From Giardia intestinalis (taxonomy: Eukaryota): 64,000 bases of DNA. The stretch lies in assembly GCA_000002435.2 (NCBI GenBank), contig CM018793.1; one strand, 5' to 3'. The notes beneath the pieces were generated by a model, which was not told the origin of the DNA, ran no database searches, and saw only the letters and a program-made list of their open reading frames with translations. Within the stretch, counting starts at the first letter, position 1. Every line of letters starts with the position of its first letter. Positions 1 to 60,374 of this stretch are shown piece after piece. The translations under genes were made by a program, and so were the position numbers.

Positions 1-3000
1 CATACCATCATTGCGCACAAGATCTGCTTCCTTGTCGATCAATAGCTTCACTGCACGCATATTTCCCTGCTGTGCTGCAAACATAAGGGCTGACCAACCG
101 TCCCTGTTCTGTTTTCCGCTTTGAATTAGGTAGGCTTTGATGTCGGCCTCATTTCCAAGTGCTACCGCTTGCATTAACCGTGTATTGCCGTACCAGTCGA
201 CCAGGTCTGTCAGAATAACTTGTTGACCAATCGTATTAGGAATGGAGGTGCGAGGACTGGAGACAGGGGTAATTACATCGGGAAGATATCCAACAGAGCC
301 CATAATTCCCTGCAATCGCTCTTCTTGTTCGTTATAGGCTTGTGATTTGGCTAAATATGCTTTTTTATATCGCTTTACCTCACCCCGCAAGTCTTCGACT
401 TCTTGCACTAAAGCATCAGATAGACTTACATCTGAACCTAGGTGGTGAAGGTCAGTCAAGGTCAAGCCATTGCTAGGTAAAACAGGATTAGTCTTATCTG
501 GTTCAGCAAATTGTTTGGCCTTTAGCTCAGCTATAGCGGACGATAAAGCAGAATTTTCAGCCTGAAGCCTCAAACGCGCATCCTCTGACTCACGTAACTG
601 TATGGCTTTTCGAAGGTATCCTGATTTGTACTTAAATACTCTGTCCTTTAACTCTTTTTCCGATAACGGGTTGATGTTCGACCTAGCATAATCAGCTTTT
701 GTAAGACGCAATAGAGCATTATCTTTGCGAAGATCCTCTAGTTCTCGTTGCAGTTCGGCAAGTGTGGGCTCGTGAGCCCTATCATGCAGGGATGACGAAT
801 GTGTAGCAAGGAATAAGTCATCGACAGGTTTAGATTCATCGGAGACCTTCTGTGCCAGGACGTCCCCGGTGGGCTGGGAGAGCAGGGCCTCCTGGAGGCG
901 CTTGATCTCGCGGTCCTTCTCGGCCAGGAGCGCGTCGTAGTCGGTGGTGGTCTGGGCCAGGCGCGGGCTCGCGGCTCCGCTAGCGACGGCGTCCTCGAGG
1001 CGCTTGCTGAGGCCTTCGTTCTCCTTGACCTTTTCTGCCAGTCGGCCAAGGGCGCTTTGGATTGCAGCCCGGTCTGCCTGCTCGTTGGCGCGCAGCTGCT
1101 GCCGGAGATCGTCCAGCGCCTGCTGGTGCCGGGCTTCGTCGGCTGCGCGAGCCTCTTCCGCGGCCCGGAGAAGGGCAGGATAGTCAATGGCGGGCTCGGC
1201 GGCTGCGGCCTGGAGGCGGGCAAGCTCTTCGTCACGGGCTTGGAGGGCCTCTTCAAGGGCCTGGATTCGGGCTGCTGCCCCGGGCTCTTCGGATTCGAGA
1301 GATCTCGGGTCCTGGGCGGCGAGCCTCTCCTGAAGCCTGGAGATCTCGGCGTTCTTCCGTTCGGCATCTGTCCTTGCTTCCGCAGCGGCATCTTCTAGAG
1401 CCCGGATGCGAGCCGTAAGTCCATCAATGGTAACTGGCAATTCGCCCTCGGCGCTTGCAGATTCCACACCCTGGACGATATTGCCCATGAGTTGTGTAAC
1501 CAGGCTGCCGTTGTCCTGAACCTTGTCGGCGAGCTGGTTGATAGCTGTTTGCAGACCATCTGCAGGAGACCGCGTTGCAGAAAGTGCGTCTCTGAGTTGG
1601 GCAATCTCGTCGTCCTTCTGTGCCAGGACGTCCCCGGTGGGCTGGGAGAGCAGGGCCTCCTGGAGGCGCTTGATCTCGCGGTCCTTCTCGGCCAGGAGCG
1701 CGTCGTAGTCGGTGGTGGTCTGGGCCAGGCGCGGGCTCGCGGCTCCGCTAGCGACGGCGTCCTCGAGGCGCTTGCTGAGGCCTTCGTTCTCCTTGACCTT
1801 TTCTGCCAGTCGGCCAAGGGCGCTTTGGATTGCAGCCCGGTCTGCCTGCTCGTTGGCGCGCAGCTGCTGCCGGAGATCGTCCAGCGCCTGCTGGTGCCGG
1901 GCTTCGTCGGCTGCGCGAGCCTCTTCCGCGGCCCGGAGAAGGGCAGGATAGTCAATGGCGGGCTCGGCGGCTGCGGCCTGGAGGCGGGCAAGCTCTTCGT
2001 CACGGGCTTGGAGGGCCTCTTCAAGGGCCTGGATTCGGGCTGCTGCCCCGGGCTCTTCGGATTCGAGAGATCTCGGGTCCTGGGCGGCGAGCCTCTCCTG
2101 AAGCCTGGAGATCTCGGCGTTCTTCCGTTCGGCATCTGTCCTTGCTTCCGCAGCGGCATCTTCTAGAGCCCGGATGCGAGCCGTAAGTCCATCAATGGTA
2201 ACTGGCAATTCGCCCTCGGCGCTTGCAGATTCCACACCCTGGACGATATTGCCCATGAGTTGTGTAACCAGGCTGCCGTTGTCCTGAACCTTGTCGGCGA
2301 GCTGGTTGATAGCTGTTTGCAGACCATCTGCAGGAGACCGCGTTGCAGAAAGTGCGTCTCTGAGTTGGGCAATCTCGTCGTCCTTCTGTGCCAGGACGTC
2401 CCCGGTGGGCTGGGAGAGCAGGGCCTCCTGGAGGCGCTTGATCTCGCGGTCCTTCTCGGCCAGGAGCGCGTCGTAGTCGGTGGTGGTCTGGGCCAGGCGC
2501 GGGCTCGCGGCTCCGCTAGCGACGGCGTCCTCGAGGCGCTTGCTGAGGCCTTCGTTCTCCTTGACCTTTTCTGCCAGTCGGCCAAGGGCGCTTTGGATTG
2601 CAGCCCGGTCTGCCTGCTCGTTGGCGCGCAGCTGCTGCCGGAGATCGTCCAGCGCCTGCTGGTGCCGGGCTTCGTCGGCTGCGCGAGCCTCTTCCGCGGC
2701 CCGGAGAAGGGCAGGATAGTCAATGGCGGGCTCGGCGGCTGCGGCCTGGAGGCGGGCAAGCTCTTCGTCACGGGCTTGGAGGGCCTCTTCAAGGGCCTGG
2801 ATTCGGGCTGCTGCCCCGGGCTCTTCGGATTCGAGAGATCTCGGGTCCTGGGCGGCGAGCCTCTCCTGAAGCCTGGAGATCTCGGCGTTCTTCCGTTCGG
2901 CATCTGTCCTTGCTTCCGCAGCGGCATCTTCTAGAGCCCGGATGCGAGCCGTAAGTCCATCAATGGTAACTGGCAATTCGCCCTCGGCGCTTGCAGATTC

Positions 3001-6000
3001 CACACCCTGGACGATATTGCCCATGAGTTGTGTAACCAGGCTGCCGTTGTCCTGAACCTTGTCGGCGAGCTGGTTGATAGCTGTTTGCAGACCATCTGCA
3101 GGAGACCGCGTTGCAGAAAGTGCGTCTCTGAGTTGGGCAATCTCGTCGTCCTTCTGTGCCAGGACGTCCCCGGTGGGCTGGGAGAGCAGGGCCTCCTGGA
3201 GGCGCTTGATCTCGCGGTCCTTCTCGGCCAGGAGCGCGTCGTAGTCGGTGGTGGTCTGGGCCAGGCGCGGGCTCGCGGCTCCGCTAGCGACGGCGTCCTC
3301 GAGGCGCTTGCTGAGGCCTTCGTTCTCCTTGACCTTTTCTGCCAGTCGGCCAAGGGCGCTTTGGATTGCAGCCCGGTCTGCCTGCTCGTTGGCGCGCAGC
3401 TGCTGCCGGAGATCGTCCAGCGCCTGCTGGTGCCGGGCTTCGTCGGCTGCGCGAGCCTCTTCCGCGGCCCGGAGAAGGGCAGGATAGTCAATGGCGGGCT
3501 CGGCGGCTGCGGCCTGGAGGCGGGCAAGCTCTTCGTCACGGGCTTGGAGGGCCTCTTCAAGGGCCTGGATTCGGGCTGCTGCCCCGGGCTCTTCGGATTC
3601 GAGAGATCTCGGGTCCTGGGCGGCGAGCCTCTCCTGAAGCCTGGAGATCTCGGCGTTCTTCCGTTCGGCATCTGTCCTTGCTTCCGCAGCGGCATCTTCT
3701 AGAGCCCGGATGCGAGCCGTAAGTCCATCAATGGTAACTGGCAATTCGCCCTCGGCGCTTGCAGATTCCACACCCTGGACGATATTGCCCATGAGTTGTG
3801 TAACCAGGCTGCCGTTGTCCTGAACCTTGTCGGCGAGCTGGTTGATAGCTGTTTGCAGACCATCTGCAGGAGACCGCGTTGCAGAAAGTGCGTCTCTGAG
3901 TTGGGCAATCTCGTCGTCCTTCTGTGCCAGGACGTCCCCGGTGGGCTGGGAGAGCAGGGCCTCCTGGAGGCGCTTGATCTCGCGGTCCTTCTCGGCCAGG
4001 AGCGCGTCGTAGTCGGTGGTGGTCTGGGCCAGGCGCGGGCTCGCGGCTCCGCTAGCGACGGCGTCCTCGAGGCGCTTGCTGAGGCCTTCGTTCTCCTTGA
4101 CCTTTTCTGCCAGTCGGCCAAGGGCGCTTTGGATTGCAGCCCGGTCTGCCTGCTCGTTGGCGCGCAGCTGCTGCCGGAGATCGTCCAGCGCCTGCTGGTG
4201 CCGGGCTTCGTCGGCTGCGCGAGCCTCTTCCGCGGCCCGGAGAAGGGCAGGATAGTCAATGGCGGGCTCGGCGGCTGCGGCCTGGAGGCGGGCAAGCTCT
4301 TCGTCACGGGCTTGGAGGGCCTCTTCAAGGGCCTGGATTCGGGCTGCTGCCCCGGGCTCTTCGGATTCGAGAGATCTCGGGTCCTGGGCGGCGAGCCTCT
4401 CCTGAAGCCTGGAGATCTCGGCGTTCTTCCGTTCGGCATCTGTCCTTGCTTCCGCAGCGGCATCTTCTAGAGCCCGGATGCGAGCCGTAAGTCCATCAAT
4501 GGTAACTGGCAATTCGCCCTCGGCGCTTGCAGATTCCACACCCTGGACGATATTGCCCATGAGTTGTGTAACCAGGCTGCCGTTGTCCTGAACCTTGTCG
4601 GCGAGCTGGTTGATAGCTGTTTGCAGACCATCTGCAGGAGACCGCGTTGCAGAAAGTGCGTCTCTGAGTTGGGCAATCTCGTCGTCCTTCTGTGCCAGGA
4701 CGTCCCCGGTGGGCTGGGAGAGCAGGGCCTCCTGGAGGCGCTTGATCTCGCGGTCCTTCTCGGCCAGGAGCGCGTCGTAGTCGGTGGTGGTCTGGGCCAG
4801 GCGCGGGCTCGCGGCTCCGCTAGCGACGGCGTCCTCGAGGCGCTTGCTGAGGCCTTCGTTCTCCTTGACCTTTTCTGCCAGTCGGCCAAGGGCGCTTTGG
4901 ATTGCAGCCCGGTCTGCCTGCTCGTTGGCGCGCAGCTGCTGCCGGAGATCGTCCAGCGCCTGCTGGTGCCGGGCTTCGTCGGCTGCGCGAGCCTCTTCCG
5001 CGGCCCGGAGAAGGGCAGGATAGTCAATGGCGGGCTCGGCGGCTGCGGCCTGGAGGCGGGCAAGCTCTTCGTCACGGGCTTGGAGGGCCTCTTCAAGGGC
5101 CTGGATTCGGGCTGCTGCCCCGGGCTCTTCGGATTCGAGAGATCTCGGGTCCTGGGCGGCGAGCCTCTCCTGAAGCCTGGAGATCTCGGCGTTCTTCCGT
5201 TCGGCATCTGTCCTTGCTTCCGCAGCGGCATCTTCTAGAGCCCGGATGCGAGCCGTAAGTCCATCAATGGTAACTGGCAATTCGCCCTCGGCGCTTGCAG
5301 ATTCCACACCCTGGACGATATTGCCCATGAGTTGTGTAACCAGGCTGCCGTTGTCCTGAACCTTGTCGGCGAGCTGGTTGATAGCTGTTTGCAGACCATC
5401 TGCAGGAGACCGCGTTGCAGAAAGTGCGTCTCTGAGTTGGGCAATCTCGTCGTCCTTCTGTGCCAGGACGTCCCCGGTGGGCTGGGAGAGCAGGGCCTCC
5501 TGGAGGCGCTTGATCTCGCGGTCCTTCTCGGCCAGGAGCGCGTCGTAGTCGGTGGTGGTCTGGGCCAGGCGCGGGCTCGCGGCTCCGCTAGCGACGGCGT
5601 CCTCGAGGCGCTTGCTGAGGCCTTCGTTCTCCTTGACCTTTTCTGCCAGTCGGCCAAGGGCGCTTTGGATTGCAGCCCGGTCTGCCTGCTCGTTGGCGCG
5701 CAGCTGCTGCCGGAGATCGTCCAGCGCCTGCTGGTGCCGGGCTTCGTCGGCTGCGCGAGCCTCTTCCGCGGCCCGGAGAAGGGCAGGATAGTCAATGGCG
5801 GGCTCGGCGGCTGCGGCCTGGAGGCGGGCAAGCTCTTCGTCACGGGCTTGGAGGGCCTCTTCAAGGGCCTGGATTCGGGCTGCTGCCCCGGGCTCTTCGG
5901 ATTCGAGAGATCTCGGGTCCTGGGCGGCGAGCCTCTCCTGAAGCCTGGAGATCTCGGCGTTCTTCCGTTCGGCATCTGTCCTTGCTTCCGCAGCGGCATC

Positions 6001-9000
6001 TTCTAGAGCCCGGATGCGAGCCGTAAGTCCATCAATGGTAACTGGCAATTCGCCCTCGGCGCTTGCAGATTCCACACCCTGGACGATATTGCCCATGAGT
6101 TGTGTAACCAGGCTGCCGTTGTCCTGAACCTTGTCGGCGAGCTGGTTGATAGCTGTTTGCAGACCATCTGCAGGAGACCGCGTTGCAGAAAGTGCGTCTC
6201 TGAGTTGGGCAATCTCGTCGTCCTTCTGTGCCAGGACGTCCCCGGTGGGCTGGGAGAGCAGGGCCTCCTGGAGGCGCTTGATCTCGCGGTCCTTCTCGGC
6301 CAGGAGCGCGTCGTAGTCGGTGGTGGTCTGGGCCAGGCGCGGGCTCGCGGCTCCGCTAGCGACGGCGTCCTCGAGGCGCTTGCTGAGGCCTTCGTTCTCC
6401 TTGACCTTTTCTGCCAGTCGGCCAAGGGCGCTTTGGATTGCAGCCCGGTCTGCCTGCTCGTTGGCGCGCAGCTGCTGCCGGAGATCGTCCAGCGCCTGCT
6501 GGTGCCGGGCTTCGTCGGCTGCGCGAGCCTCTTCCGCGGCCCGGAGAAGGGCAGGATAGTCAATGGCGGGCTCGGCGGCTGCGGCCTGGAGGCGGGCAAG
6601 CTCTTCGTCACGGGCTTGGAGGGCCTCTTCAAGGGCCTGGATTCGGGCTGCTGCCCCGGGCTCTTCGGATTCGAGAGATCTCGGGTCCTGGGCGGCGAGC
6701 CTCTCCTGAAGCCTGGAGATCTCGGCGTTCTTCCGTTCGGCATCTGTCCTTGCTTCCGCAGCGGCATCTTCTAGAGCCCGGATGCGAGCCGTAAGTCCAT
6801 CAATGGTAACTGGCAATTCGCCCTCGGCGCTTGCAGATTCCACACCCTGGACGATATTGCCCATGAGTTGTGTAACCAGGCTGCCGTTGTCCTGAACCTT
6901 GTCGGCGAGCTGGTTGATAGCTGTTTGCAGACCATCTGCAGGAGACCGCGTTGCAGAAAGTGCGTCTCTGAGTTGGGCAATCTCGTCGTCCTTCTGTGCC
7001 AGGACGTCCCCGGTGGGCTGGGAGAGCAGGGCCTCCTGGAGGCGCTTGATCTCGCGGTCCTTCTCGGCCAGGAGCGCGTCGTAGTCGGTGGTGGTCTGGG
7101 CCAGGCGCGGGCTCGCGGCTCCGCTAGCGACGGCGTCCTCGAGGCGCTTGCTGAGGCCTTCGTTCTCCTTGACCTTTTCTGCCAGTCGGCCAAGGGCGCT
7201 TTGGATTGCAGCCCGGTCTGCCTGCTCGTTGGCGCGCAGCTGCTGCCGGAGATCGTCCAGCGCCTGCTGGTGCCGGGCTTCGTCGGCTGCGCGAGCCTCT
7301 TCCGCGGCCCGGAGAAGGGCAGGATAGTCAATGGCGGGCTCGGCGGCTGCGGCCTGGAGGCGGGCAAGCTCTTCGTCACGGGCTTGGAGGGCCTCTTCAA
7401 GGGCCTGGATTCGGGCTGCTGCCCCGGGCTCTTCGGATTCGAGAGATCTCGGGTCCTGGGCGGCGAGCCTCTCCTGAAGCCTGGAGATCTCGGCGTTCTT
7501 CCGTTCGGCATCTGTCCTTGCTTCCGCAGCGGCATCTTCTAGAGCCCGGATGCGAGCCGTAAGTCCATCAATGGTAACTGGCAATTCGCCCTCGGCGCTT
7601 GCAGATTCCACACCCTGGACGATATTGCCCATGAGTTGTGTAACCAGGCTGCCGTTGTCCTGAACCTTGTCGGCGAGCTGGTTGATAGCTGTTTGCAGAC
7701 CATCTGCAGGAGACCGCGTTGCAGAAAGTGCGTCTCTGAGTTGGGCAATCTCGTCGTCCTTCTGTGCCAGGACGTCCCCGGTGGGCTGGGAGAGCAGGGC
7801 CTCCTGGAGGCGCTTGATCTCGCGGTCCTTCTCGGCCAGGAGCGCGTCGTAGTCGGTGGTGGTCTGGGCCAGGCGCGGGCTCGCGGCTCCGCTAGCGACG
7901 GCGTCCTCGAGGCGCTTGCTGAGGCCTTCGTTCTCCTTGACCTTTTCTGCCAGTCGGCCAAGGGCGCTTTGGATTGCAGCCCGGTCTGCCTGCTCGTTGG
8001 CGCGCAGCTGCTGCCGGAGATCGTCCAGCGCCTGCTGGTGCCGGGCTTCGTCGGCTGCGCGAGCCTCTTCCGCGGCCCGGAGAAGGGCAGGATAGTCAAT
8101 GGCGGGCTCGGCGGCTGCGGCCTGGAGGCGGGCAAGCTCTTCGTCACGGGCTTGGAGGGCCTCTTCAAGGGCCTGGATTCGGGCTGCTGCCCCGGGCTCT
8201 TCGGATTCGAGAGATCTCGGGTCCTGGGCGGCGAGCCTCTCCTGAAGCCTGGAGATCTCATCGTCCTTTCGCGCTAATACGTCACTGATGGGTTGAGAGA
8301 GAAGCAAATCATTCAAGTTCATTTTGGAGGATTGAATATCATATGCAGGAGTAGGAGCCATTCCCAACATAACTTCATCTAGTAAGTTGTGGTTTGGCGT
8401 ATAAGGAATTGAGGAGGATATATTGATACACAGGTTTCTCAACCGATCGATTTCTTTATCGCGCTCTTTGAGAAGCTTATGAAATTGGGCCCTTATTTCA
8501 TTGACATCATCTGAAGAAAAGTCAGTATCAGGCATAGAAAGAGGAGCTAGAGACACACCGTATGTTGAGATAAGAAGCTCCCTAAAGCAGTTCATTCCAT
8601 CCCTAATATCGATTGGATACTCGGTATTCTTAAAAGAGTGGTAATCGGCGAACGTCTGATAAATGTTCAACAGGTCGTCACGCAAATCTTCTTTATGATC
8701 ACCAGAAGTAAGTGCTGTATCGACTTTATCAGAATAATCCATCAGCAGTTTTCGACAAACCAGCGGGGCAAGAGTAGGCTGCACACATGTCCCATACACC
8801 GGTACGGATGTTCGACTAAGAAATTGCAATTCAACCTCATCCTGGTTTGTGAGGGTGAAGTCTGTTATGCGCTTTGTTCCACATCTATTTGTCGATGTCA
8901 CGAACTGCTCAAGTATCTGCTTAGCATATGCAAGGTATTCTCTGATATCAGTGTCGGCATTGGAAGCTGCATCACCTAATAAGCGTTGACAGCAGAAGAT

Positions 9001-40494: not shown

Positions 40495-43400
40495 TCACTG
40501 CTTTTGCACCATTCCTACTGTGCTGAGGACATCAAACACGTCGCTCATCTTAGTGGTAGGTGTCCGCTGCACATGCACTCCCACTTGTTTGCTGAGCTTT
40601 CCAGAGCCATGCGCCGACCTGTCCCCCAGAGCGTTAGCTGGAAAGGCAGAGTATGCAGACCTTGGCCTATATTGATCAGATGCAGAAGCAGCGTGGGCTC
40701 TCCGGCTTCCTCCTGCACCTTTGGTTGCGTACCCCCTGAAGCCATCCACGGACCCTTCACGTCCATTGATGCTATTGTTAGTATTCTGAGCATTGTCATC
40801 CCCCATAATACCTGCACCATAAACTTGGGCGCTCTGGATTCGCCTCTTACTGGCTGTCTCGTTAACATTTGGTCTAGCTGATTTCGAGGCTTGGGTGCGA
40901 ACGACACTATTTGGTTCGTGTATGCTCTGCCTGCGGGACCCCGGTGCAAGGCTTGGAGTCTGAGACGTAGATGGGCGACGCCCAGGGATGTTCAGTCTGG
41001 CGAGAACCTCCCCATTTGTCTGGTTACTCTCTGCAATTGTTTGGCGGCCTTTGGCTACATAATCTATGGGCTTTTGCTTTTGTGGCAAGATGCACTGTCT
41101 ATATTCAAAAGGTGTTTTGGCAGAGGCCGTGCTCTTGGCCGAGGACATCCTTGACGTGGGGCCTCCTCCACTCAGCCTCCGCGGAGCATCAGCGCTGGCG
41201 TGACCGTATGTATCGTACTCTAAGCCAATACCACCAGCTGGATAATCTTCGTGCTTGGATAGATTTCCAAATAGATATCTGTTTAGATTCTTATCTGCTT
41301 TGTCACCCCCAAATGTAGCATTTGCACTGTTACTCATCCTTGTTGTGCGTCCAGAAGTGTTGACGGAGTTGCTTCCACTCATCGCGGTCTGAGGTCTAAT
41401 GACGGGAGGCGTCACGGCAAAGATTCCCATGTTCTCTGATACTAGTGTAGGCTGTGCCACTACTGGAGCATCTGTTAAGAGAGAAAGCGCTCGTAAAATC
41501 CGCTCTGTGGTCCGCTTACGTTCCTGTAAGATAAGCTCCCGCTTTCTCAAATAGCGGATGCGTAGCTCCTCTGCTCGTTGGAGGATACGAGTAAATACTC
41601 CCTCCATGTTGGGATTGGTGTACGCACCGCCCCGAGCACCAGGTTTGAACGGTGGATAGTGGGGAATCTTGAATGGCTTGTGGGGGAACGGTTGATACTT
41701 GGTACCAGTAAAGCCATCATGATCATCCACTGGAGGTGGTCTACCAAAGCCAATCACGTCCTTTGTAGAACCAGAGGGCCTGCCAGACATAGTGGGTAGC
41801 ATTTCTTTACTACTGGGTGGTCGTGAAAGCTCCTTCTCACTAAGGTAAGTTCCAGGCGCTAGTGGCTCCATCCCACGTTTGGTCGGGACTGCTGCCGGAG
41901 AGTTATTGAATAGAAAAGCGGGAGGGCCGGCATTAATCATCATTTCTTTTGCTATTTCCGATAAGGGTATCCGAAGGCCACAACGTGGGCAAAGAATAAA
42001 CCTCTCTCCATTTTCATTTACGACAAAATGGATTTCAGCGTGTTCATGGTCAGTGGAATCTTTCATTGCCGTATCTATCGAAGTTCGTTGTCTAAACTCA
42101 TTGTTTGTAGCATTTTTGTCATCATCATAACCTGGCAGCTTGCCGAGTTCATCGTTTGTCTCAGCAGAATTAACTGTAGGGCGAATGATTACAACGCTGT
42201 TCCTCCTGTCAGTCTCTTCTTGAGCATCAGATGAGCGAATTCCTCTCCATTCAACAGACCGGCCTCCACAAAGCCCACCGCCTTCAGAGCTGTAGTATTG
42301 TCCTGGCATGTAGGCACCGGAGACTGGTGTATGTCTACTACTGCCTTGACTTGTATGAGGATCACTGAGCTCGTTTCTGATGGCAAGACAATCGCCACAC
42401 TCATACCTATGTGACGCTTGCATTAGGATGGGTACCTTGTCACTTGTGAAGTAAACATTATCGCAGGCTGTCGTACAAATCTGGGTGTTCACACCTACAT
42501 CCACGAACCGACGCCCTGAGCCGGAGCTTAGGCTCTTCTCTGTATCATAAGGAGCAACTGCTTGAATAGTATGCAAGGTAGACCCAGGTCCAGAAGGTTG
42601 CACGTCGCTTAGAGCATCTCCACCACGAGTCGAGGCTGCATCGGCATGATGGAATTCTTTGGACTTGTTCAGATATGAATTATCGATCCTCTCACTCATC
42701 AATTGAGGATCTGAGAGCACTATTGAATTGATAACTGTGAGCTGCGGGATTCCTTGTTCATCTGTAAAGAACTGGTCGGCAAATTCACGGTCTGGCATGG
42801 TTGCATAGTTGCCATAAGCGTTTCTGTAACCATCATGTGTTCGTTGATCTGCGGGGGGCTCTAAATCTGCATCTGTCAAATCTTGGCTGCCAGTAGTCTT
42901 AACGGATTTGCCATAGCCCTTCTTCTGTGTCCGACCTCCCTTTCGAGAAGAGCCAGCAGAGTCTAGTAAGCGGGAGTCTTGGTCCTCCTCCTTGATTCTG
43001 CTTGTGATAAGCTCCGTGTCTGCTCCGAGCGGTCTTAACGCACGCAGCTCCCCTAAATCATCATGGGGCCCGCTTGTAATCTTGGTTTGCGCATCGTACA
43101 TCCCAGTGAGGTCGTGACGTTTTCGCTTAGTCCCATAGTCTTCTTTGACCATAGAGTTGTCCGTCGAGACAGAAAGCTGACTAAGACCGAAGTCTCCTCC
43201 AAAGTTTGTAACAAGCTTAGAGTTTGCATATGCCTTACTCCATGCCAGAAGCTGCTTGAGTGATTTATTTAGATGCTTGTTTGCTAACTTTCCCATCCGT
43301 TGTTGATTGATCATCTTCTCAACAGTCTTGTACAGGTAGTTTGTTGGGATCGTTGCTCTTCCAGACCTATCGGACATGCTTTTGTCAATATCGTGGAGCG

Positions 43401-45066
43401 ACTCGCTAAGGTCTTCGACGCCGCTGACACCCACCCTAATCGTAGGCTCTGTACGTAGCGTAGATTCGTCGCTAACTTCCGTTGAGAAATGACTGGTGTC
43501 TGCTTTCTGGTACTTCTTACTGTCGCTATAATCTGCAGGATTGAAGTCCTTAGTAATGAGCATCTTCGTTAAGGCGCCGTTACGATCATCAAATAGACGA
43601 TTAAATATCAAATCCACGCACTTGAGAGTATTCTTGAACTCTTTCTCTGCATCCTCGACAGCTCCACTGAGGTCTGAGATGACGCTGTTGGAGTTGTATT
43701 CAGCGTAAATGTTATCCACCTCCTCGTCATGCTGCTGCTGCAGAGCCTTTATCGCGTCTTCCATCTCTGAGCGAACCTCCTTACATTGCTTCTCTAGACG
43801 CTCATTACGTTGCTCTTGCTCCTGTAGCTTTGCCATAAGATCTGCAATCTGGCCATCTGTATTCTTCGCTAGCATCTCTGCAAGAGTCCGCTCAGCTTCC
43901 TTAACTTTCTCCATAAGATCGGCCTTTTGTGCATCAAGATCTTTTACGTTTTGCTTGCGTAGCTGATCTAACTCCTCCTTGTGCTCACGTTTCAGTTGGT
44001 TCATCATCCCTTTCAGATAGTCTTCTCTCTCCAGGGAGTCTCTCAGCTCTGCAGATAGCTTAGTTATATCTCTGTCACGTGCGGCAAGTTCGCCTTCAAA
44101 CATACCAGAAGCAGATCTTGCCGCCTCAGTTAAGCTAGCTACTTGTGAATTTAAATACTCTATCTGATCATCGTAGTATGCCTTCTGCTTATCGACGTCC
44201 TCCTCGCAACGTGTGCGGAGAGCATCCGCTTCTGCTTCTGCCTGCTCTAAACGAGACTTCAATGCGTCTATTTCTGTGGCAAGCCGTGCAGTCTGGGTCT
44301 CTGCAGACTGCAGCTCTGCGCGGTGCTTTCCATCTATTCGCTTCTTCTCCTCATTGAATCTATCTGTAACGTCCTTCACAGCATGATCAATGTCTGCCTG
44401 TGTAAAGCCGCCGCCTGCTGATCCGGGCAGCATAACTGCGGTGGCATCCATCCCTGACCCAGGAGCAAAGTCAGGCTTGTAAAGACCTCCTATCCGGACC
44501 TTCTTTTGGAAAAGTTGCTCTCTCAGCATATTAATTTCCTTGGTGAGAGAGTCTCGAATTTCGTCTTTTTGGAGGCTTAGGTCTTTCGCAGTCACCTTAA
44601 GCGCGTCTAACTCCCGCTGCAAAGCAAGAATTTCTATATCCTGGCCAGATGTCCCTGCCATTTGCGTTGTAAAGCTATCAAAAATAAGAGCTTCGCGCGA
44701 GCCAATAAGCTGCCGGATGGTGGGTTCGATTATTGACGTTATCTTACATTGAAGGCTGGACATAACATCAGAGAAGTCTGCTACAAATATGGGATAGACA
44801 GACTTTGGACTTACGTGGTCTGTTCGCGCATCACATCCAAGCGAGGGTTCAAACATGACATAAAAGGGGTGCGAATTGACTATGTTCTTGATATCCAGCT
44901 CTGCGTCTCTAAACCAACGTTCTACCTCAGTGAGCAAGGTATCTACTGCCGTTCCCACAAAGTCCTCCATATCAGGTGGCTTATCTAATGCGGCACAATG
45001 TAGATCAAATGCATCAAAGTCTTGCGCAACCTGCGTTTGGTGACGCGAGACTGCGAAGCGCTCCAT
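40495..45066 (-). CDS. Large hypothetical protein of ~1523 aa. It has an N-terminal ~480-aa coiled coil, a central region with Cys/His clusters and a Ser/Thr/Gly/Arg-rich low-complexity C-terminus.
   Basis: ORF track 40495..45117 starts at GTG. I re-anchored on ATG MERFAVSRHQ (plus 'cat' 45064-45066), preceded by 'aaatttaaaaacagaaATG'. Possible zinc-binding segments are 'CTTACDNVYF..HRYECGDC' and 'HEHAEIHF..FILCPRCG'. Confidence 0.65.
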   Translation of the reverse strand: MERFAVSRHQTQVAQDFDAFDLHCAALDKPPDMEDFVGTAVDTLLTEVERWFRDAELDIKNIVNSHPFYVMFEPSLGCDARTDHVSPKSVYPIFVADFSDVMSSLQCKITSIIEPTIRQLIGSREALIFDSFTTQMAGTSGQDIEILALQRELDALKVTAKDLSLQKDEIRDSLTKEINMLREQLFQKKVRIGGLYKPDFAPGSGMDATAVMLPGSAGGGFTQADIDHAVKDVTDRFNEEKKRIDGKHRAELQSAETQTARLATEIDALKSRLEQAEAEADALRTRCEEDVDKQKAYYDDQIEYLNSQVASLTEAARSASGMFEGELAARDRDITKLSAELRDSLEREDYLKGMMNQLKREHKEELDQLRKQNVKDLDAQKADLMEKVKEAERTLAEMLAKNTDGQIADLMAKLQEQEQRNERLEKQCKEVRSEMEDAIKALQQQHDEEVDNIYAEYNSNSVISDLSGAVEDAEKEFKNTLKCVDLIFNRLFDDRNGALTKMLITKDFNPADYSDSKKYQKADTSHFSTEVSDESTLRTEPTIRVGVSGVEDLSESLHDIDKSMSDRSGRATIPTNYLYKTVEKMINQQRMGKLANKHLNKSLKQLLAWSKAYANSKLVTNFGGDFGLSQLSVSTDNSMVKEDYGTKRKRHDLTGMYDAQTKITSGPHDDLGELRALRPLGADTELITSRIKEEDQDSRLLDSAGSSRKGGRTQKKGYGKSVKTTGSQDLTDADLEPPADQRTHDGYRNAYGNYATMPDREFADQFFTDEQGIPQLTVINSIVLSDPQLMSERIDNSYLNKSKEFHHADAASTRGGDALSDVQPSGPGSTLHTIQAVAPYDTEKSLSSGSGRRFVDVGVNTQICTTACDNVYFTSDKVPILMQASHRYECGDCLAIRNELSDPHTSQGSSRHTPVSGAYMPGQYYSSEGGGLCGGRSVEWRGIRSSDAQEETDRRNSVVIIRPTVNSAETNDELGKLPGYDDDKNATNNEFRQRTSIDTAMKDSTDHEHAEIHFVVNENGERFILCPRCGLRIPLSEIAKEMMINAGPPAFLFNNSPAAVPTKRGMEPLAPGTYLSEKELSRPPSSKEMLPTMSGRPSGSTKDVIGFGRPPPVDDHDGFTGTKYQPFPHKPFKIPHYPPFKPGARGGAYTNPNMEGVFTRILQRAEELRIRYLRKRELILQERKRTTERILRALSLLTDAPVVAQPTLVSENMGIFAVTPPVIRPQTAMSGSNSVNTSGRTTRMSNSANATFGGDKADKNLNRYLFGNLSKHEDYPAGGIGLEYDTYGHASADAPRRLSGGGPTSRMSSAKSTASAKTPFEYRQCILPQKQKPIDYVAKGRQTIAESNQTNGEVLARLNIPGRRPSTSQTPSLAPGSRRQSIHEPNSVVRTQASKSARPNVNETASKRRIQSAQVYGAGIMGDDNAQNTNNSINGREGSVDGFRGYATKGAGGSRRAHAASASDQYRPRSAYSAFPANALGDRSAHGSGKLSKQVGVHVQRTPTTKMSDVFDVLSTVGMVQKQ

Positions 45067-45138
45067 TTCTGTTTTTAAATTTTCTGCGTGGAATAGGAGC
45101 CATCTTCCGAAGCTCACCCACTAGTTGTCAACAAAACA

Positions 45139-49033: not shown

Positions 49034-50539
49034 TCAGTGTCTCCCCAATGACATGGTAACGTCACGCTGAAGAGAAATGGTACGCCCCTGTTTGAGCACA
49101 ACCGTGTTGCTGGCTCTCAGAGCCAGAGAAGCCAAAAACAGAGAGGCTGCCATTCGTCTCGATGATCCGGCTAATTCTGAAATCGAAAGGGGTGCCGAGG
49201 ACTGCCTTAGCATGGACAGCAATGTCAGCCCACTTTCGGGTATACTATCATGTTTATGTGAGTGGCTATCACCCTGTGCTGAAGCTTTTTCATTGAGTGG
49301 CGAGGCTTCACTATAGTCCGGCTCTGGGGGCTCCTCACACCCCACGGGAGTAGTGACCATGCAGTCCTCCTCTGGAAGATCTTCTTGTCTGAAACATTTC
49401 CAATTCTCCGAGACAATGGTCGCTAAGTCATGATACTCTGGCTCAGACCAATTGAAAGTGATATCTGGTTTATTGACTACCTCTTGAATTGGATGCCTAT
49501 CTCTAAAGTCTATGAAGATGGAGGCTACTACTTGATCTGGTGGCCTATACGCATACTTCTGCATAGTACTGTGATGCATACGTGCCTGCTTATCGAAAAG
49601 GAATGATGGGGGTCTGGTTCTCTTTGCAGCGACTGTGGCAGTGCTGCTCTTCTTCGCTGGATTCTTTATCTCTCTAACGGTGACGGTAACATCTGGAAGC
49701 TTGTCAGAGGTATTGGCCAAGAAAAGGCTCGTCAACTTCTGCGAGGCCTCCAGAAATGCGCTGCCAGACACATCAAACGCGTGTTTGGACAGCAAAGAAC
49801 TATGCATGGCATGCCCAGTGACAACCTGGCTTGTATCGAGGTCATTGAGCCCAATTTCAGAGGTGGCACGTACAAGCTCCCCCTCGACCGCACGGACTTG
49901 CATGTCGGCGTCTGAATTATTTGCCAAAGAAATAGAGCCCATCATACTATCATGGAAAGGATCTTGTGATTCTGGATTGGTGAGGGAGAAGGGAACATTT
50001 GTTGCTTTAGAGAATGACAGTAGATCGCTTTCAGTATCTTCTTTCAGTAGATTGGCCCATACACCCCCTGGTAACTGGTGTACAAAATCGAGATTTCTTG
50101 GATATTCTTGGTCTTCGAGGCTGTCCTCTTTAGATTGAGTGCCAAATATGGAAGAGATCAGCGCATTATGCCGAGTAGTCTTATTAGCTACAATGGTAGA
50201 GAAATGTAATGAGAGACCTAGGGCTCGTGGGCCTGCACTCTTGGCCACTGCTGAAGAAGCCTTCCGAGTGGATTTGGCCAAGGACAAAAGCTGGTGCATC
50301 TTACGCGCAACGCTAAGCACAGTGGATGATTTGTATGTTTGTATCAAAACGACACCAGAGAGAATAATGGAAAAATCCTGCAGAGTGCTATAATTTGCTT
50401 TTAAAAGCACTTCTATGAGTGTCGCTAATCGGACGCTTCTAAGAGAAGCGCTTGCAATGTGGCCAGTAAACCCCGATGTCCATACAGTCAGCACTGCGGG
50501 GTTGTCCTGCGCAGACTCCTGCGGCTCGGCCACTGTCAT
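49034..50539 (-). CDS. Hypothetical protein of 501 aa, a candidate divergent Rad21/Rec8-like kleisin.
   Basis: The ATG start is plus 'cat' 50537-50539. The N-terminal segment 'DFSIILSGVVLIQTYKSSTVLSVARKMHQLL' resembles the kleisin N-terminal helix '[30 protein letters not shown]'. The C-terminus 'SSRRMAASLFLASLALRASNTVVLKQ' resembles the kleisin winged-helix 'SRKQAARTFYYLLVL....I.LEQ'. This rests on recalled motifs, not a search. Confidence 0.5.
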   Translation of the reverse strand: MTVAEPQESAQDNPAVLTVWTSGFTGHIASASLRSVRLATLIEVLLKANYSTLQDFSIILSGVVLIQTYKSSTVLSVARKMHQLLSLAKSTRKASSAVAKSAGPRALGLSLHFSTIVANKTTRHNALISSIFGTQSKEDSLEDQEYPRNLDFVHQLPGGVWANLLKEDTESDLLSFSKATNVPFSLTNPESQDPFHDSMMGSISLANNSDADMQVRAVEGELVRATSEIGLNDLDTSQVVTGHAMHSSLLSKHAFDVSGSAFLEASQKLTSLFLANTSDKLPDVTVTVREIKNPAKKSSTATVAAKRTRPPSFLFDKQARMHHSTMQKYAYRPPDQVVASIFIDFRDRHPIQEVVNKPDITFNWSEPEYHDLATIVSENWKCFRQEDLPEEDCMVTTPVGCEEPPEPDYSEASPLNEKASAQGDSHSHKHDSIPESGLTLLSMLRQSSAPLSISELAGSSRRMAASLFLASLALRASNTVVLKQGRTISLQRDVTMSLGRH

Positions 50540-50554
50540 ATTAAAAATTTAACG
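50540..50554. promoter_or_regulatory. A 15-nt A/T-rich bidirectional initiator ('attaaaaatttaacg') between divergent ATGs (kleisin-like on the minus strand, NEK-like pseudokinase on the plus strand).
   Basis: ATGs lie at 50539..50537 (-) and 50555..50557 (+). Confidence 0.45.
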
Positions 50555-51463
50555 ATGCTTAAGCTTCCTGAGTACAGGCATGGGAAAGAGGTTGTGTTGT
50601 CAGCATCAGAGTTTTCCGTTACTTACCGAGCCATCAGACTGAAAGACCTGGCCGATGTTGCTGTGAAAGTAACGGATACCGTGAAGCTGGCGGAATCTGG
50701 GCGTTCAGACTACCGTCACGAGTCTCGAGTACTTCAGAATGCAGTGCATCCGCATATACTGCGCGCTGTGTATGGATACTATGATGAGGAGACCAAGAAG
50801 TTCCTGTTAGAAACAGAGTACTGCCGCGGTGGATCTCTTTGGGGACTAATGGCCTGGATGCGGAAGAGTGATATGCGTTTTTCTGAGCAAGAGGTCTGGG
50901 AACTGTTTGCTCAATTGGTGAGTGCATTGCACTACCTGCATAAGACCAACGAGCACATTGGGATAACTGCGCATTTGAATCTTCGCCCTGACAACGTTCT
51001 TCTTACTCAAGACGGTATTTTGAAACTTTGTGGCTTTGGATATAGCGCTACTAGGGAGCCCAACAAGCTATTTACGCTGCGCAATCCTGGAACCGCCTAT
51101 CATGCCCCCGAGGTTGTAGCATTTACCAACTCTCAAGGTAGTAGTGAGGGGTACACGGAAGCAGCTGATATCTGGAGCCTTGGCTGCATGATTTATGAAC
51201 TCTGCACGTTTAGGCGCATAGAGAATGAGCCTGTATCGTCCTTCAACCCATTACCGGAGAACCTTGAAACACCAGGGTATGCGGATGACCTTCTCATCCT
51301 TATAAAGGCGTGTCTTGCTCCCAACCCCAGGGAGCGAATCACAGCAGAGCTTCTTATGGCCAGTCCCCCAATTCAAGCCGCATACGCTAGAATTAACGAT
51401 ATCTTGAAAGCAGGAAGAAAGTGGTCTGGGCTGATCATAGAGATGCAGCGTGAACTGCGTTAG
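50555..51463 (+). CDS. NEK-like Ser/Thr protein kinase fold, predicted catalytically dead (pseudokinase), ~302 aa.
   Basis: The ORF track start is GTG, so I re-anchored on ATG 50555 (MLKLPEYRHG). Kinase subdomains are present ('AVKV' VAIK-Lys, 'YHAPE', 'DIWSLGC'), but there is no GxGxxG loop, HRD is replaced by HLN ('HLNLRPDNVLL') and DFG by GFG ('LCGFGYS'). Confidence 0.8.
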   Translation: MLKLPEYRHGKEVVLSASEFSVTYRAIRLKDLADVAVKVTDTVKLAESGRSDYRHESRVLQNAVHPHILRAVYGYYDEETKKFLLETEYCRGGSLWGLMAWMRKSDMRFSEQEVWELFAQLVSALHYLHKTNEHIGITAHLNLRPDNVLLTQDGILKLCGFGYSATREPNKLFTLRNPGTAYHAPEVVAFTNSQGSSEGYTEAADIWSLGCMIYELCTFRRIENEPVSSFNPLPENLETPGYADDLLILIKACLAPNPRERITAELLMASPPIQAAYARINDILKAGRKWSGLIIEMQRELR

Positions 51464-58982: not shown

Positions 58983-60374
58983 TCATGTGGCATATGCATC
59001 AGCTCCATAGCAATCAGCTACATTGATAAGTACGGTGCCCCTTGTTTCCACGTGACAGAGCTGGCAAAACTCTCCAACAAGACGCCTCTCCTTGTTTTGA
59101 AACGTATAGTGACAACAGGGCAGCCTCAAAATGCATTGGAATCCAGTAGGGCAATAGTTAGGGAGGTTACGCATCACTGAGATCTTGATTGATCGCTCCA
59201 CTCCGTTGCGCAGCTCACTGATGCGTGCCTTCTTTGCGGCCAGGTCGTTGTGAAGTATTTGCCGAGTAGAGTCATAAATTCGTATTAGTTCTATTATGTT
59301 TTCACGATCAATATATGTTGAAATATTAGAGCTACTACCGAGGGCCGAGGGCCTAACAGACCTTGCTGTCAGGGCACCTTTGGTGTCAGATAAATTAGAA
59401 AGGGCAAGCCTGTCCTTTGGGAGATTCCGTGCACTTTTTGACTCGACTGCATGCTGAACTACTTGGGAGTTACCCATTGTCTCAAAAGAGCTGTTAGAGA
59501 TATCAAGCTTTGGTACAACCGCTTTCTTCGCCTGAGCTGAAGAGTGATAGCTATGAGATACTGATGTAGATTTCCTGGGGGTACTTACTGGACTACTAAG
59601 GACAGTGATCATCCTGTTAATCCCTCCGGAAACACTTGTCATATTATTTAGTTGCTTATCAAACCTGGCACTATAGTTTAGGGCATGCCGCTCTTCGCTA
59701 TAAGATAGAGGCGCATACATCTTCTTCTCCCGTCTTTCTGACCGTAGCTGATGCGTCTTGAGAATAAGAGGTTCGGCCTCCTCGCCATTGACACGAGTCT
59801 TCAAGGGTAGTAACAATTTGATATACTGCTTGATGCTGCACTTCTTATCATGAATGTCTCGCGGCGTGATTGGGTGTGCTCGTTCAACGGTGTTGCCAGA
59901 TTTCTCTATGACAGGCTCATCTCCCTGTGGGGTGTTACCTCTTACAGTCGTGGTACTGAAAGATAAATTGGAAGCCAGAATAGAAGGGAGCGAAAGATCA
60001 CGCAAACGGTTGGGCGTATCCTGACGTTGGTCTTTGAAAATAGTAGGATGATCAATGCTTGGCTGATAGCCTGTCAGAGACTGGTTACTCTTTGGAGACG
60101 ATGCTTCTTTATTACATAAATCCGGAGCAATGCCTATAACTTCTTTAGCTCCACGAACAGATGATGAACACTGTTCTCGACTGAATGATTTGATCGATTG
60201 TAGGGTCGTAGTTGCCAGTTCAGAAGACTTAGCAGGCGAATTCCCCATCTTTGCAATCTCAGTAACCTCGCCTAACGTTCCTTTCTGCATGGGTAAGAGC
60301 AACAAAAGCGCCAAATAAATCCTGCCTCCTTTGCCGTAAAATTTATATCCCATGGAACTGGATTTCGGTACCAT
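58983..60374 (-). CDS. Hypothetical Ser-rich protein of 463 aa with a C-terminal Cys/His cluster (CPTGFQC..PCCH..FCQLCH).
   Basis: The ATG is plus 'cat' 60372-60374. An alternative internal start 'MGNSPAK' has an N-myristoylation-like context. Its 5' end overlaps the divergent RSPH9-like gene. Confidence 0.5.
   Translation of the reverse strand: MVPKSSSMGYKFYGKGGRIYLALLLLLPMQKGTLGEVTEIAKMGNSPAKSSELATTTLQSIKSFSREQCSSSVRGAKEVIGIAPDLCNKEASSPKSNQSLTGYQPSIDHPTIFKDQRQDTPNRLRDLSLPSILASNLSFSTTTVRGNTPQGDEPVIEKSGNTVERAHPITPRDIHDKKCSIKQYIKLLLPLKTRVNGEEAEPLILKTHQLRSERREKKMYAPLSYSEERHALNYSARFDKQLNNMTSVSGGINRMITVLSSPVSTPRKSTSVSHSYHSSAQAKKAVVPKLDISNSSFETMGNSQVVQHAVESKSARNLPKDRLALSNLSDTKGALTARSVRPSALGSSSNISTYIDRENIIELIRIYDSTRQILHNDLAAKKARISELRNGVERSIKISVMRNLPNYCPTGFQCILRLPCCHYTFQNKERRLVGEFCQLCHVETRGTVLINVADCYGADAYAT

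Follow-up and report, generated by a model that had tools for sequence, protein, structure and literature searches.

Background

To our knowledge, a kleisin is required for ring closure in all known structural maintenance of chromosomes (SMC) complexes, and separase requires a substrate. Giardia has Smc1-6, with Rad21, Rec8, Pds5, and Scc3 scored as missing (Malik et al. 2008, PMC2488364), and Smc1, Smc3, and separase are kept across published inventories from which Rad21/Rec8/Scc3/Pds5 are missing (PMC2488364, PMC4985590, PMC4161512). Here, we examine the Giardia intestinalis gene GL50803_006485, located at 49034-50539 on the minus strand of a 64,000-nucleotide stretch of contig CM018793.1 (assembly GCA_000002435.2; this whole stretch is hereafter the window), which, from sequence comparisons, we lean towards reading as a highly divergent alpha-type (Rad21/Scc1-like) kleisin and as the third subunit that the Smc1-Smc3 cohesin ring of Giardia is missing.

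The machinery around this putative subunit has been studied in some detail. Smc1, Smc3, and separase were found in Giardia, where Smc1/3 knockdown led to chromosome missegregation (Vicente and Cande 2014, PMC4161512), and securin and the APC/C (anaphase-promoting complex/cyclosome) were likewise reported missing by published inventories and cell-biology papers. An "alternative cohesin complex lacking Rad21/Scc1" has been cited as a possible cause of the constitutive aneuploidy of Giardia, and both condensin complexes are described as present, at least in the passage of PMC7016506 that cites Tumova et al. 2015. Since Smc1, Smc3, and separase are present in Giardia and no Rad21/Scc1 has been assigned, a kleisin is expected, which raises the prior for a protein, such as that of GL50803_006485, whose architecture fits and whose C-terminal domain is kleisin-like. 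A previous inspection of the window from its letters and open reading frames (ORFs) alone, hereafter the sequence-only reading, had nominated this gene and presumed that its host was a diplomonad whose cohesin system is reduced; that presumption was right, the host being Giardia and the inventories being those above, without Rad21/Rec8/Scc3/Pds5. A "putative cohesin", GL50803_137745 (PMC8700996), was considered as a competing kleisin and dropped, as it is an SMC3-like protein instead.

Results

A C-terminal domain resembling that of kleisins

The C-terminal block (aa 434-491; 49067-49240, minus strand) is a winged-helix-like domain that we propose, from Pfam, hidden Markov model (HMM), and hhalign comparisons, as an SMC1-head-binding module. 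The full-length protein had a single Pfam match, to PF04824 (the C-terminal region of Rad21_Rec8; 14.3 bits, E=0.026), in which aa 455-485 align with profile positions 11-41 of 55. Like the corresponding domain of kleisins, this match lies at the extreme C-terminus. Among the five Giardia orthologues described below, four matched PF04824 at full length (best E=0.0013), and it was the top family for four of the five isolated 77-aa C-terminal fragments (E of 1.8e-4 at 21.1 bits, 3.9e-3, 9.2e-3, and 9.9e-3). Because the Rad21_Rec8 family had been named in advance, the per-family P is approximately E/24736, roughly 1e-6 or lower.

Profile comparisons made apart from Pfam pointed the same way. Five alpha-kleisin baits were each Pfam-validated at E 1e-18 to 1e-43, and a C-domain HMM was built from four of them plus four database sequences. 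Against this HMM, the five Giardia C-termini scored 18.3, 20.7, 10.2, 15.6, and 16.4 bits, and none of 5000 composition-matched shuffles reached the real score (shuffle maximum 9.2 bits). Using hhalign, the C-domain comparison gave P=5.8e-5 at a probability of 65.6%, with a score of 28.5 vs 9.2±1.8 (maximum 17.8) for 200 column shuffles. When the Giardia C-block profile (A4) was searched in reverse against 177,635 PDB sequences, the first rank went to aa 580-618 of the 628-aa S. pombe Rad21, i.e., its C-terminal winged helix, at a weak E=0.31, and Rad21 was the sole kleisin in the match list. In a six-frame control, the ORF scored best of the 459 window segments (15.2 bits with the C-domain HMM).

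The residues that align are those expected to matter. The bait-invariant Scc1 positions A524, F528, L532, L534, and Q544 align with Giardia A464, F468, L472, L474, and Q484, which are invariant in all five Giardia sequences. Mutation of Scc1 F528 or L532 stops the interaction of Mcd1/Scc1 with cohesin (PMC9426526), and both helix-3 positions are kept in Giardia, as F468 and L472, in five of five orthologues. The domain is predicted to comprise helix 1 (TLLSMLRQ), helix 2 (SISELA), and helix 3 (SRRMAASLFLASLALRAS), followed by two strands (TVVLKQ/TISLQ), so that a hydrophobic FLxxLxL-type helix 3 is followed by a beta wing, as is characteristic of the kleisin superfamily. AlphaFold2 placed helices at 435-446, 453-457, and 461-475 and non-helical segments thereafter, a low-confidence model that has the layout expected of a winged helix. 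Overall, C-terminal sequence homology to kleisins is sub-threshold but reproducible and above chance. The sequence-only reading had quoted two peptides, both of which are indeed present (ILSGVVLIQTYKSSTVLSVARKMHQLL = aa 59-85; SRRMAASLFLASLALRASNTVVLKQ = aa 460-484), and its claim that the C-terminus fits kleisins stands on the reproducible sub-threshold PF04824 match, the shuffles, and hhalign.

Which kleisin class the C-terminal domain resembles

Pfam-validated baits were scored with the Giardia C-terminal profile to rank the kleisin classes. SpRad21 came first (alpha, 16.1 bits), followed by AtSYN4 (alpha, 13.3 bits), HsREC8 (alpha, 8.9 bits), the prokaryotic BsScpA (8.2 bits), HsRAD21 (alpha, 7.9 bits), and ScScc1 (alpha, 1.2 bits), with CAP-H2 (beta, -0.7 bits), CAP-H (gamma, -1.1 bits), and NSE4A (delta, -1.2 bits) at the bottom. 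For each of the five best-scoring baits, the aligned region is the bait's own C-terminal winged helix; for ScScc1 it lies elsewhere, at aa 97-111, and the alignment is weak. Neither the full protein nor its fragments had a Pfam match to Cnd2, CNDH2_N/CNDH2_C, Nse4_C, or SMC_ScpA at E<=10. Alpha thus appears to be the best-supported kleisin class for GL50803_006485 on these scores, though not exclusively.

The N-terminal block

The most conserved part of the protein is an N-terminal helical block (aa 13-92; 50264-50503, minus strand), the proposed SMC3-neck-binding domain, to which two low-confidence AlphaFold2 models assigned helices at approximately 14-32, 36-47, 53-68, and 72-90. The sequence-only reading held that this block also fits kleisins, and here its claim was not borne out statistically. 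Pfam gave neither PF04825 nor any other N-terminal match at E<=10, for the full protein as for five isolated N-terminal fragments. Against a Rad21_Rec8_N HMM built from 123 real, diverse sequences (120 of them fished with the five alpha-kleisin baits), the Giardia N-termini scored about -1 bit, which is the shuffle mean. The hhalign N-domain comparison gave P=0.41-0.62, with a score of 11.4 vs 12.1±2.5 for shuffles, and 57% of the column shuffles equaled or exceeded it; its best local match was the very motif highlighted by the sequence-only reading (ILSGVVLIQTYKSS), at this non-significant P. There were no kleisins among the PDB matches of the N-terminal profile, and the ORF was not among the window's top matches to the Rad21_N profile in the six-frame control. 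Aligned in register and almost without gaps, Giardia aa 27-104 and yeast Scc1 aa 42-120 (HIA..., Y.TL, G.V) gave 4.2 bits for the N-domain alone, a marginal value that was reached by 1.9% of shuffles before correction for nine targets. Since the Pfam, HMMER, hhalign, and PDB profile comparisons all turned up nothing significant, N-terminal resemblance to kleisins is not established by sequence comparison. The profile searches that the sequence-only reading had proposed for both kleisin ends therefore came out divided, with a sub-threshold but correctly placed and reciprocally supported match for the C domain and none for the N domain.

Separately, the invariant LTVWTSGFTGHIA (aa 13-27; 50459-50503) weakly recalls the TSGSTGxPKG of adenylate-forming enzymes (PDB 7vhv_D, E=1.8); the pairing of "WTSGFTGH" with their TSGSTG motif at this E-value was judged to be probably a chance match.

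The acidic linker and its candidate motifs

Between the two blocks lies an acidic, poorly conserved linker (aa 136-433; 49241-50134, minus strand) with a net charge of -21 and a composition rich in S/D/E/P, most of which is without predicted helices in the low-confidence full-length AlphaFold2 model. As mean pairwise identity in a five-sequence Giardia alignment (A1), the N-terminal block (aa 13-92) stands at 88%, the first part of the linker (aa 136-305) at 63%, its second part (aa 334-433) at 40%, and the C-terminal block (aa 434-491) at 68%, so that linker conservation (40-63%) is far below that of both ends (68-88%). The sequence-only reading had described a low-complexity, kleisin-like middle, and the domain order, i.e., a conserved N-terminal block, a long acidic variable linker, and a conserved C-terminal block, is that of alpha-kleisins.

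One linker position may be functionally relevant. EGELVR (aa 219-224; 49868-49885, minus strand) emerged from a motif scan of alignment A1 as a candidate separase cleavage site, with cleavage after R224, and contains the sole [DE]xxR common to all five orthologues (E219-G-E/D-L/V-V-R224). Compared with the separase motif [D/E/S]-hydrophobic-ExxR, read from P6 to P1 (PMC12609080), EGELVR fits at P6, P4, and P1 and misfits at P5, which is Gly.

The variable linker is also interrupted by a short motif, KRTRPPSFLFDKQARMHHSTMQKYAYRP (aa 306-333; 49541-49624, minus strand; consensus PPSFLFDKQARMHHxTMxKYxYxP), whose conservation in alignment A1 is approximately that of the N-terminal block (87% vs 88%). 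Using hhalign against full-length vertebrate RAD21, the C-terminal match alone was recovered and nothing elsewhere, so no counterpart of this motif was detected in the vertebrate RAD21 middle region, and the idea that it is the SA/Scc3-binding region of RAD21 was dropped. The motif is possibly a docking site for a partner.

Gene identity, conservation, and expression

The complete coding sequence of GL50803_006485 is an intact ORF with an ATG start (501 aa plus stop), and its protein is exactly XP_037902226.1/UniProt D3KGB5, annotated in Giardia intestinalis WB as a "hypothetical protein". Among 5.8 billion clustered proteins, four further Giardia sequences were its sole homologues, at identities of 82% (assemblage E, P15), 68% (GS-B), 59%, and 56%, all of them unannotated or "hypothetical". 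The two most divergent were derived from Logan assemblies of sequencing runs (orthologues P0004 and P0005; source runs ERR3333378/79/81 and SRR17450160), and in both the kinase/gene/ankyrin synteny is retained. Together these make five syntenic orthologues of 501-508 aa each. In an exhaustive profile search with the Giardia alignment, neither G. muris nor any other diplomonad contributed a separate protein at E<=0.001, and full-length phmmer searches of PDB sequences gave weak FtsX noise alone for the single sequence and nothing for the full-length profile. According to the published RNA-seq data (PMC8700996 Table S1), trophozoites and encysting cells had log2 counts per million of ~6.0-6.8, compared with 5.7-5.9 for cysts, i.e., over this time course transcription is present in proliferating stages and lowest in cysts. 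Given the intact ORF, the exact database match, the conserved synteny, and these RNA-seq levels, GL50803_006485 is a real, expressed, fast-evolving gene confined to Giardia.

Genomic neighborhood and the rest of the window

Only 15 nt separate the ATG of the candidate kleisin (minus strand) from that of a protein kinase gene (plus strand; Pfam Pkinase E=1e-37; likely ATG at MLKLPEY). The start listed for the kinase ORF, a GTG at 50459, probably lies too far upstream. Directly upstream of the candidate-kleisin ATG is the AT-rich TTAAATTTTTAAT (50540-50552, minus strand), shared with the divergent kinase gene; in the manner of Giardia promoters, it is a putative initiator. The single AT-rich stretch common to both start codons, cgTTAAATTTTTAAT (50540-50557), has the appearance of a minimal bidirectional promoter. 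Downstream of the candidate kleisin comes an ankyrin-repeat gene, and the neighbors (ankyrin proteins, kinase, SRP receptor, PI-kinase, GDPD, and phospholipase B) gave no functional clue.

Elsewhere, there is a tandem array on the minus strand of the first part of the window (1-8306), consisting of at least eight perfectly identical (100%) 768-bp units, with perfect copies at 1395-7538 flanked by one 96% copy and one 79% copy. The array accounts for the GC-rich (57-65%) first 8 kb and was missed by Tandem Repeats Finder because the longest period of that program is 500. It lies inside a giant minus-strand ORF, open for at least 3000 codons and running off the window start, which encodes 256-aa coiled-coil-like repeats and then ankyrin repeats; the 254-aa ORFs listed within the array (other minus-strand frame, R/P/S-rich translation) are probably artefacts. 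Two long minus-strand ORFs, at 40495-45117 (1540 aa) and 58983-60374 (463 aa), had no Pfam family at E<=1e-5, and the remaining genes of the window are ordinary (SRP receptor alpha, PI3/PI4-kinase, GDPD, phospholipase B, and ankyrin-repeat proteins). An Rfam scan of the window returned no RNA families.

Discussion

A candidate for the missing cohesin kleisin

The kleisin identity of GL50803_006485 is a plausible and well-motivated hypothesis. What is proposed for the role of the N-terminus, for SMC binding, for cleavage by separase, and for placing the protein in cohesin over other SMC complexes could fit together as follows. The C-terminal winged helix (aa ~434-491) would dock its hydrophobic helix 3 (F468, L472, and L474) on the Smc1 ATPase head, and the conserved N-terminal helical block (aa ~13-92), having diverged past sequence recognition, would bind the Smc3 neck, with the acidic linker of ~300 residues closing the cohesin ring. 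Separase, which Giardia retains, would then cut the linker at anaphase; the likeliest site of the cut would be behind R224 of the conserved EGE(L/V)VR. A concrete candidate gene turns the question of the "missing Rad21" in Giardia into direct experiments and, if confirmed, would correct the corresponding entry for this organism, supply a separase substrate in an APC/C-free cell cycle, and add an extreme data point for the divergence of kleisin N-terminal domains.

Several observations weigh against this reading. Every C-terminal PF04824 score is under the curated cut-off (14.3-21.1 vs 22.7 bits), and the C-terminal fragment of the assemblage B orthologue had no PF04824 match. One non-coding-frame window segment scored 11.9 bits in the six-frame control, which indicates that the small C-domain HMM is somewhat permissive. 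For the N-terminal block, Pfam, HMMER, hhalign, and PDB profile searches all failed to show similarity to Rad21_Rec8_N, and AlphaFold2 gave no confident fold, with a predicted local distance difference test score of 30 for the full length (five-sequence alignment) and 44 for the N-block alone. When the full-length Giardia alignment was compared by hhalign with full-length RAD21, no linker motifs for binding of HAWK proteins (Scc3/SA, Pds5, and Scc2) were found, in a comparison of low sensitivity as its templates were vertebrate only. Searched exhaustively with a HMMER profile, 1.84 billion representatives yielded no relatives beyond Giardia duodenalis lineages and thus no bridging sequence, so the protein is either unusually fast-evolving or lineage-restricted. 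GL50803_6485 was absent from main texts in our literature search, which found no localization or interaction data for the gene. Finally, ExxR motifs are commonplace (PMC12609080), and the R224 site is therefore compatible with cleavage, yet weak evidence for it.

An alternative is that the gene encodes a Giardia-specific protein of unrelated function whose C-terminal kleisin likeness arose by chance, by convergence, or from a generic winged-helix fold, as the sub-threshold scores, the silent N-terminus, the 11.9-bit control segment, the unconfident fold, and the lack of relatives found outside the genus would all suggest, together with a PadR-like winged-helix transcription factor among the weak PDB matches (E=0.72). 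We regard this as possible but doubtful. The per-family P is ~1e-6 for a family named beforehand, the match recurs in orthologues that are just 53-64% identical in the C-terminal region, and the reverse search ranked Rad21 ahead of all others among 177,635 sequences. Moreover, the match is correctly placed at the extreme C-terminus, with the two critical Scc1 positions conserved. The winged helices that read DNA have a polar or basic helix 3, unlike the hydrophobic one of kleisins, and by its sequence the Giardia helix 3 is hydrophobic and kleisin-like.

Returning to a cohesin kleisin, it is unlikely, in our judgment, that Giardia cohesin is closed by a "half-canonical" version of it, i.e., one with the ancestral head-binding C-terminal winged helix, an N-terminal neck-binding domain that has been replaced or unrecognizably remodeled, and no HAWK-binding motifs. 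Combined with the reported lack of Scc3, Pds5, securin, and APC/C, such a subunit would leave Giardia with a natural minimal cohesin of Smc1, Smc3, and kleisin that separase opens at a single site (R224), and the geometry of its N-terminal gate would differ.

More improbable still is that GL50803_006485 serves as a kleisin outside cohesin, in condensin I, condensin II, or Smc5/6. Its N-terminus is not Rad21-like, the helix-3 signature (FLAxLxL...V.l.Q) is common to the kleisin superfamily, and Giardia Smc2/4 and Smc5/6 (PMC2488364) need kleisins too. Furthermore, B. subtilis ScpA, a genuine non-alpha kleisin to which the Giardia C profile gives 8.2 bits, itself cross-matches PF04824 at 16.6 bits, a Giardia-like level that speaks against our class assignment, as a match of this strength shows kleisin-superfamily affinity and not class. 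However, no Pfam match was obtained to Cnd2, CNDH2_N/C, Nse4_C, or SMC_ScpA, and CAP-H2, CAP-H, and NSE4A scored from -0.7 to -1.2 bits vs 7.9-16.1 bits for four alpha-kleisins. Cohesin Rad21 was, as noted, the sole kleisin among the PDB matches, and the description in PMC7016506 of both condensin complexes as present suggests, as far as that passage goes, that condensin kleisins are assigned elsewhere.

A spurious ORF or pseudogene, which a merely "hypothetical" annotation and the lack of a precomputed Pfam domain on record might suggest, is effectively refuted by an ORF of 501-508 aa kept intact and syntenic in five lineages down to 56% identity, by strongly non-uniform conservation along the protein, and by steady mRNA levels in the published RNA-seq time course.

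Comparison with known kleisins

Among the described kleisins, CAP-H (PF05786), CAP-H2 (PF06278/PF16858), and Nse4 (PF08743) share with the Giardia protein an architecture of N-terminal helical domain, linker, and C-terminal winged helix, and differ from it in giving no Pfam matches and approximately zero or negative scores with the Giardia C profile. By eye, helix 3 of CAP-H2 (MLASLQLANDYTVEITQ) is similar to that of Giardia (FLASLALRASNTVVLKQ), a likeness that was rejected given its -0.7 bits with that profile. ScpA (PF02616) is alike in its C-terminal winged helix, where the wing as well as helices 1-3 can be aligned (positions 9-65 of the Giardia profile with ScpA 181-238, at 8.2 bits), but it is half the length and without a long acidic linker, and the Giardia protein has no Pfam SMC_ScpA match.

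The alpha-kleisins (Rad21/Scc1/Mcd1 and Rec8; PF04825 plus PF04824) differ from the Giardia protein at the N-terminus, where the Giardia block keeps the bait-invariant L68 and G77 but not S71, R80, Y82, or D92, and where the bait-invariant W25 pairs with Giardia W20 solely via a 10-residue shift. In alpha-kleisins, which bridge the Smc3 neck and the Smc1 head, it is the PF04825 domain that makes a helical bundle with that neck. In addition, the Giardia C-domain scores under the Pfam threshold, a Scc3/Pds5-type motif was not detected with vertebrate templates, and the protein was confined to Giardia duodenalis lineages in all searches. Despite these differences, alpha-kleisins were the kleisin class with the highest scores in every test, and the Giardia protein shares with them a length class of ~500-630 aa, conserved blocks at the two extreme termini with an acidic variable linker between them, in which the Giardia protein carries a conserved ExxR, and the C-terminal winged-helix signature R..A...F...L.L.........Q, with the equivalents of F528 and L532 kept.

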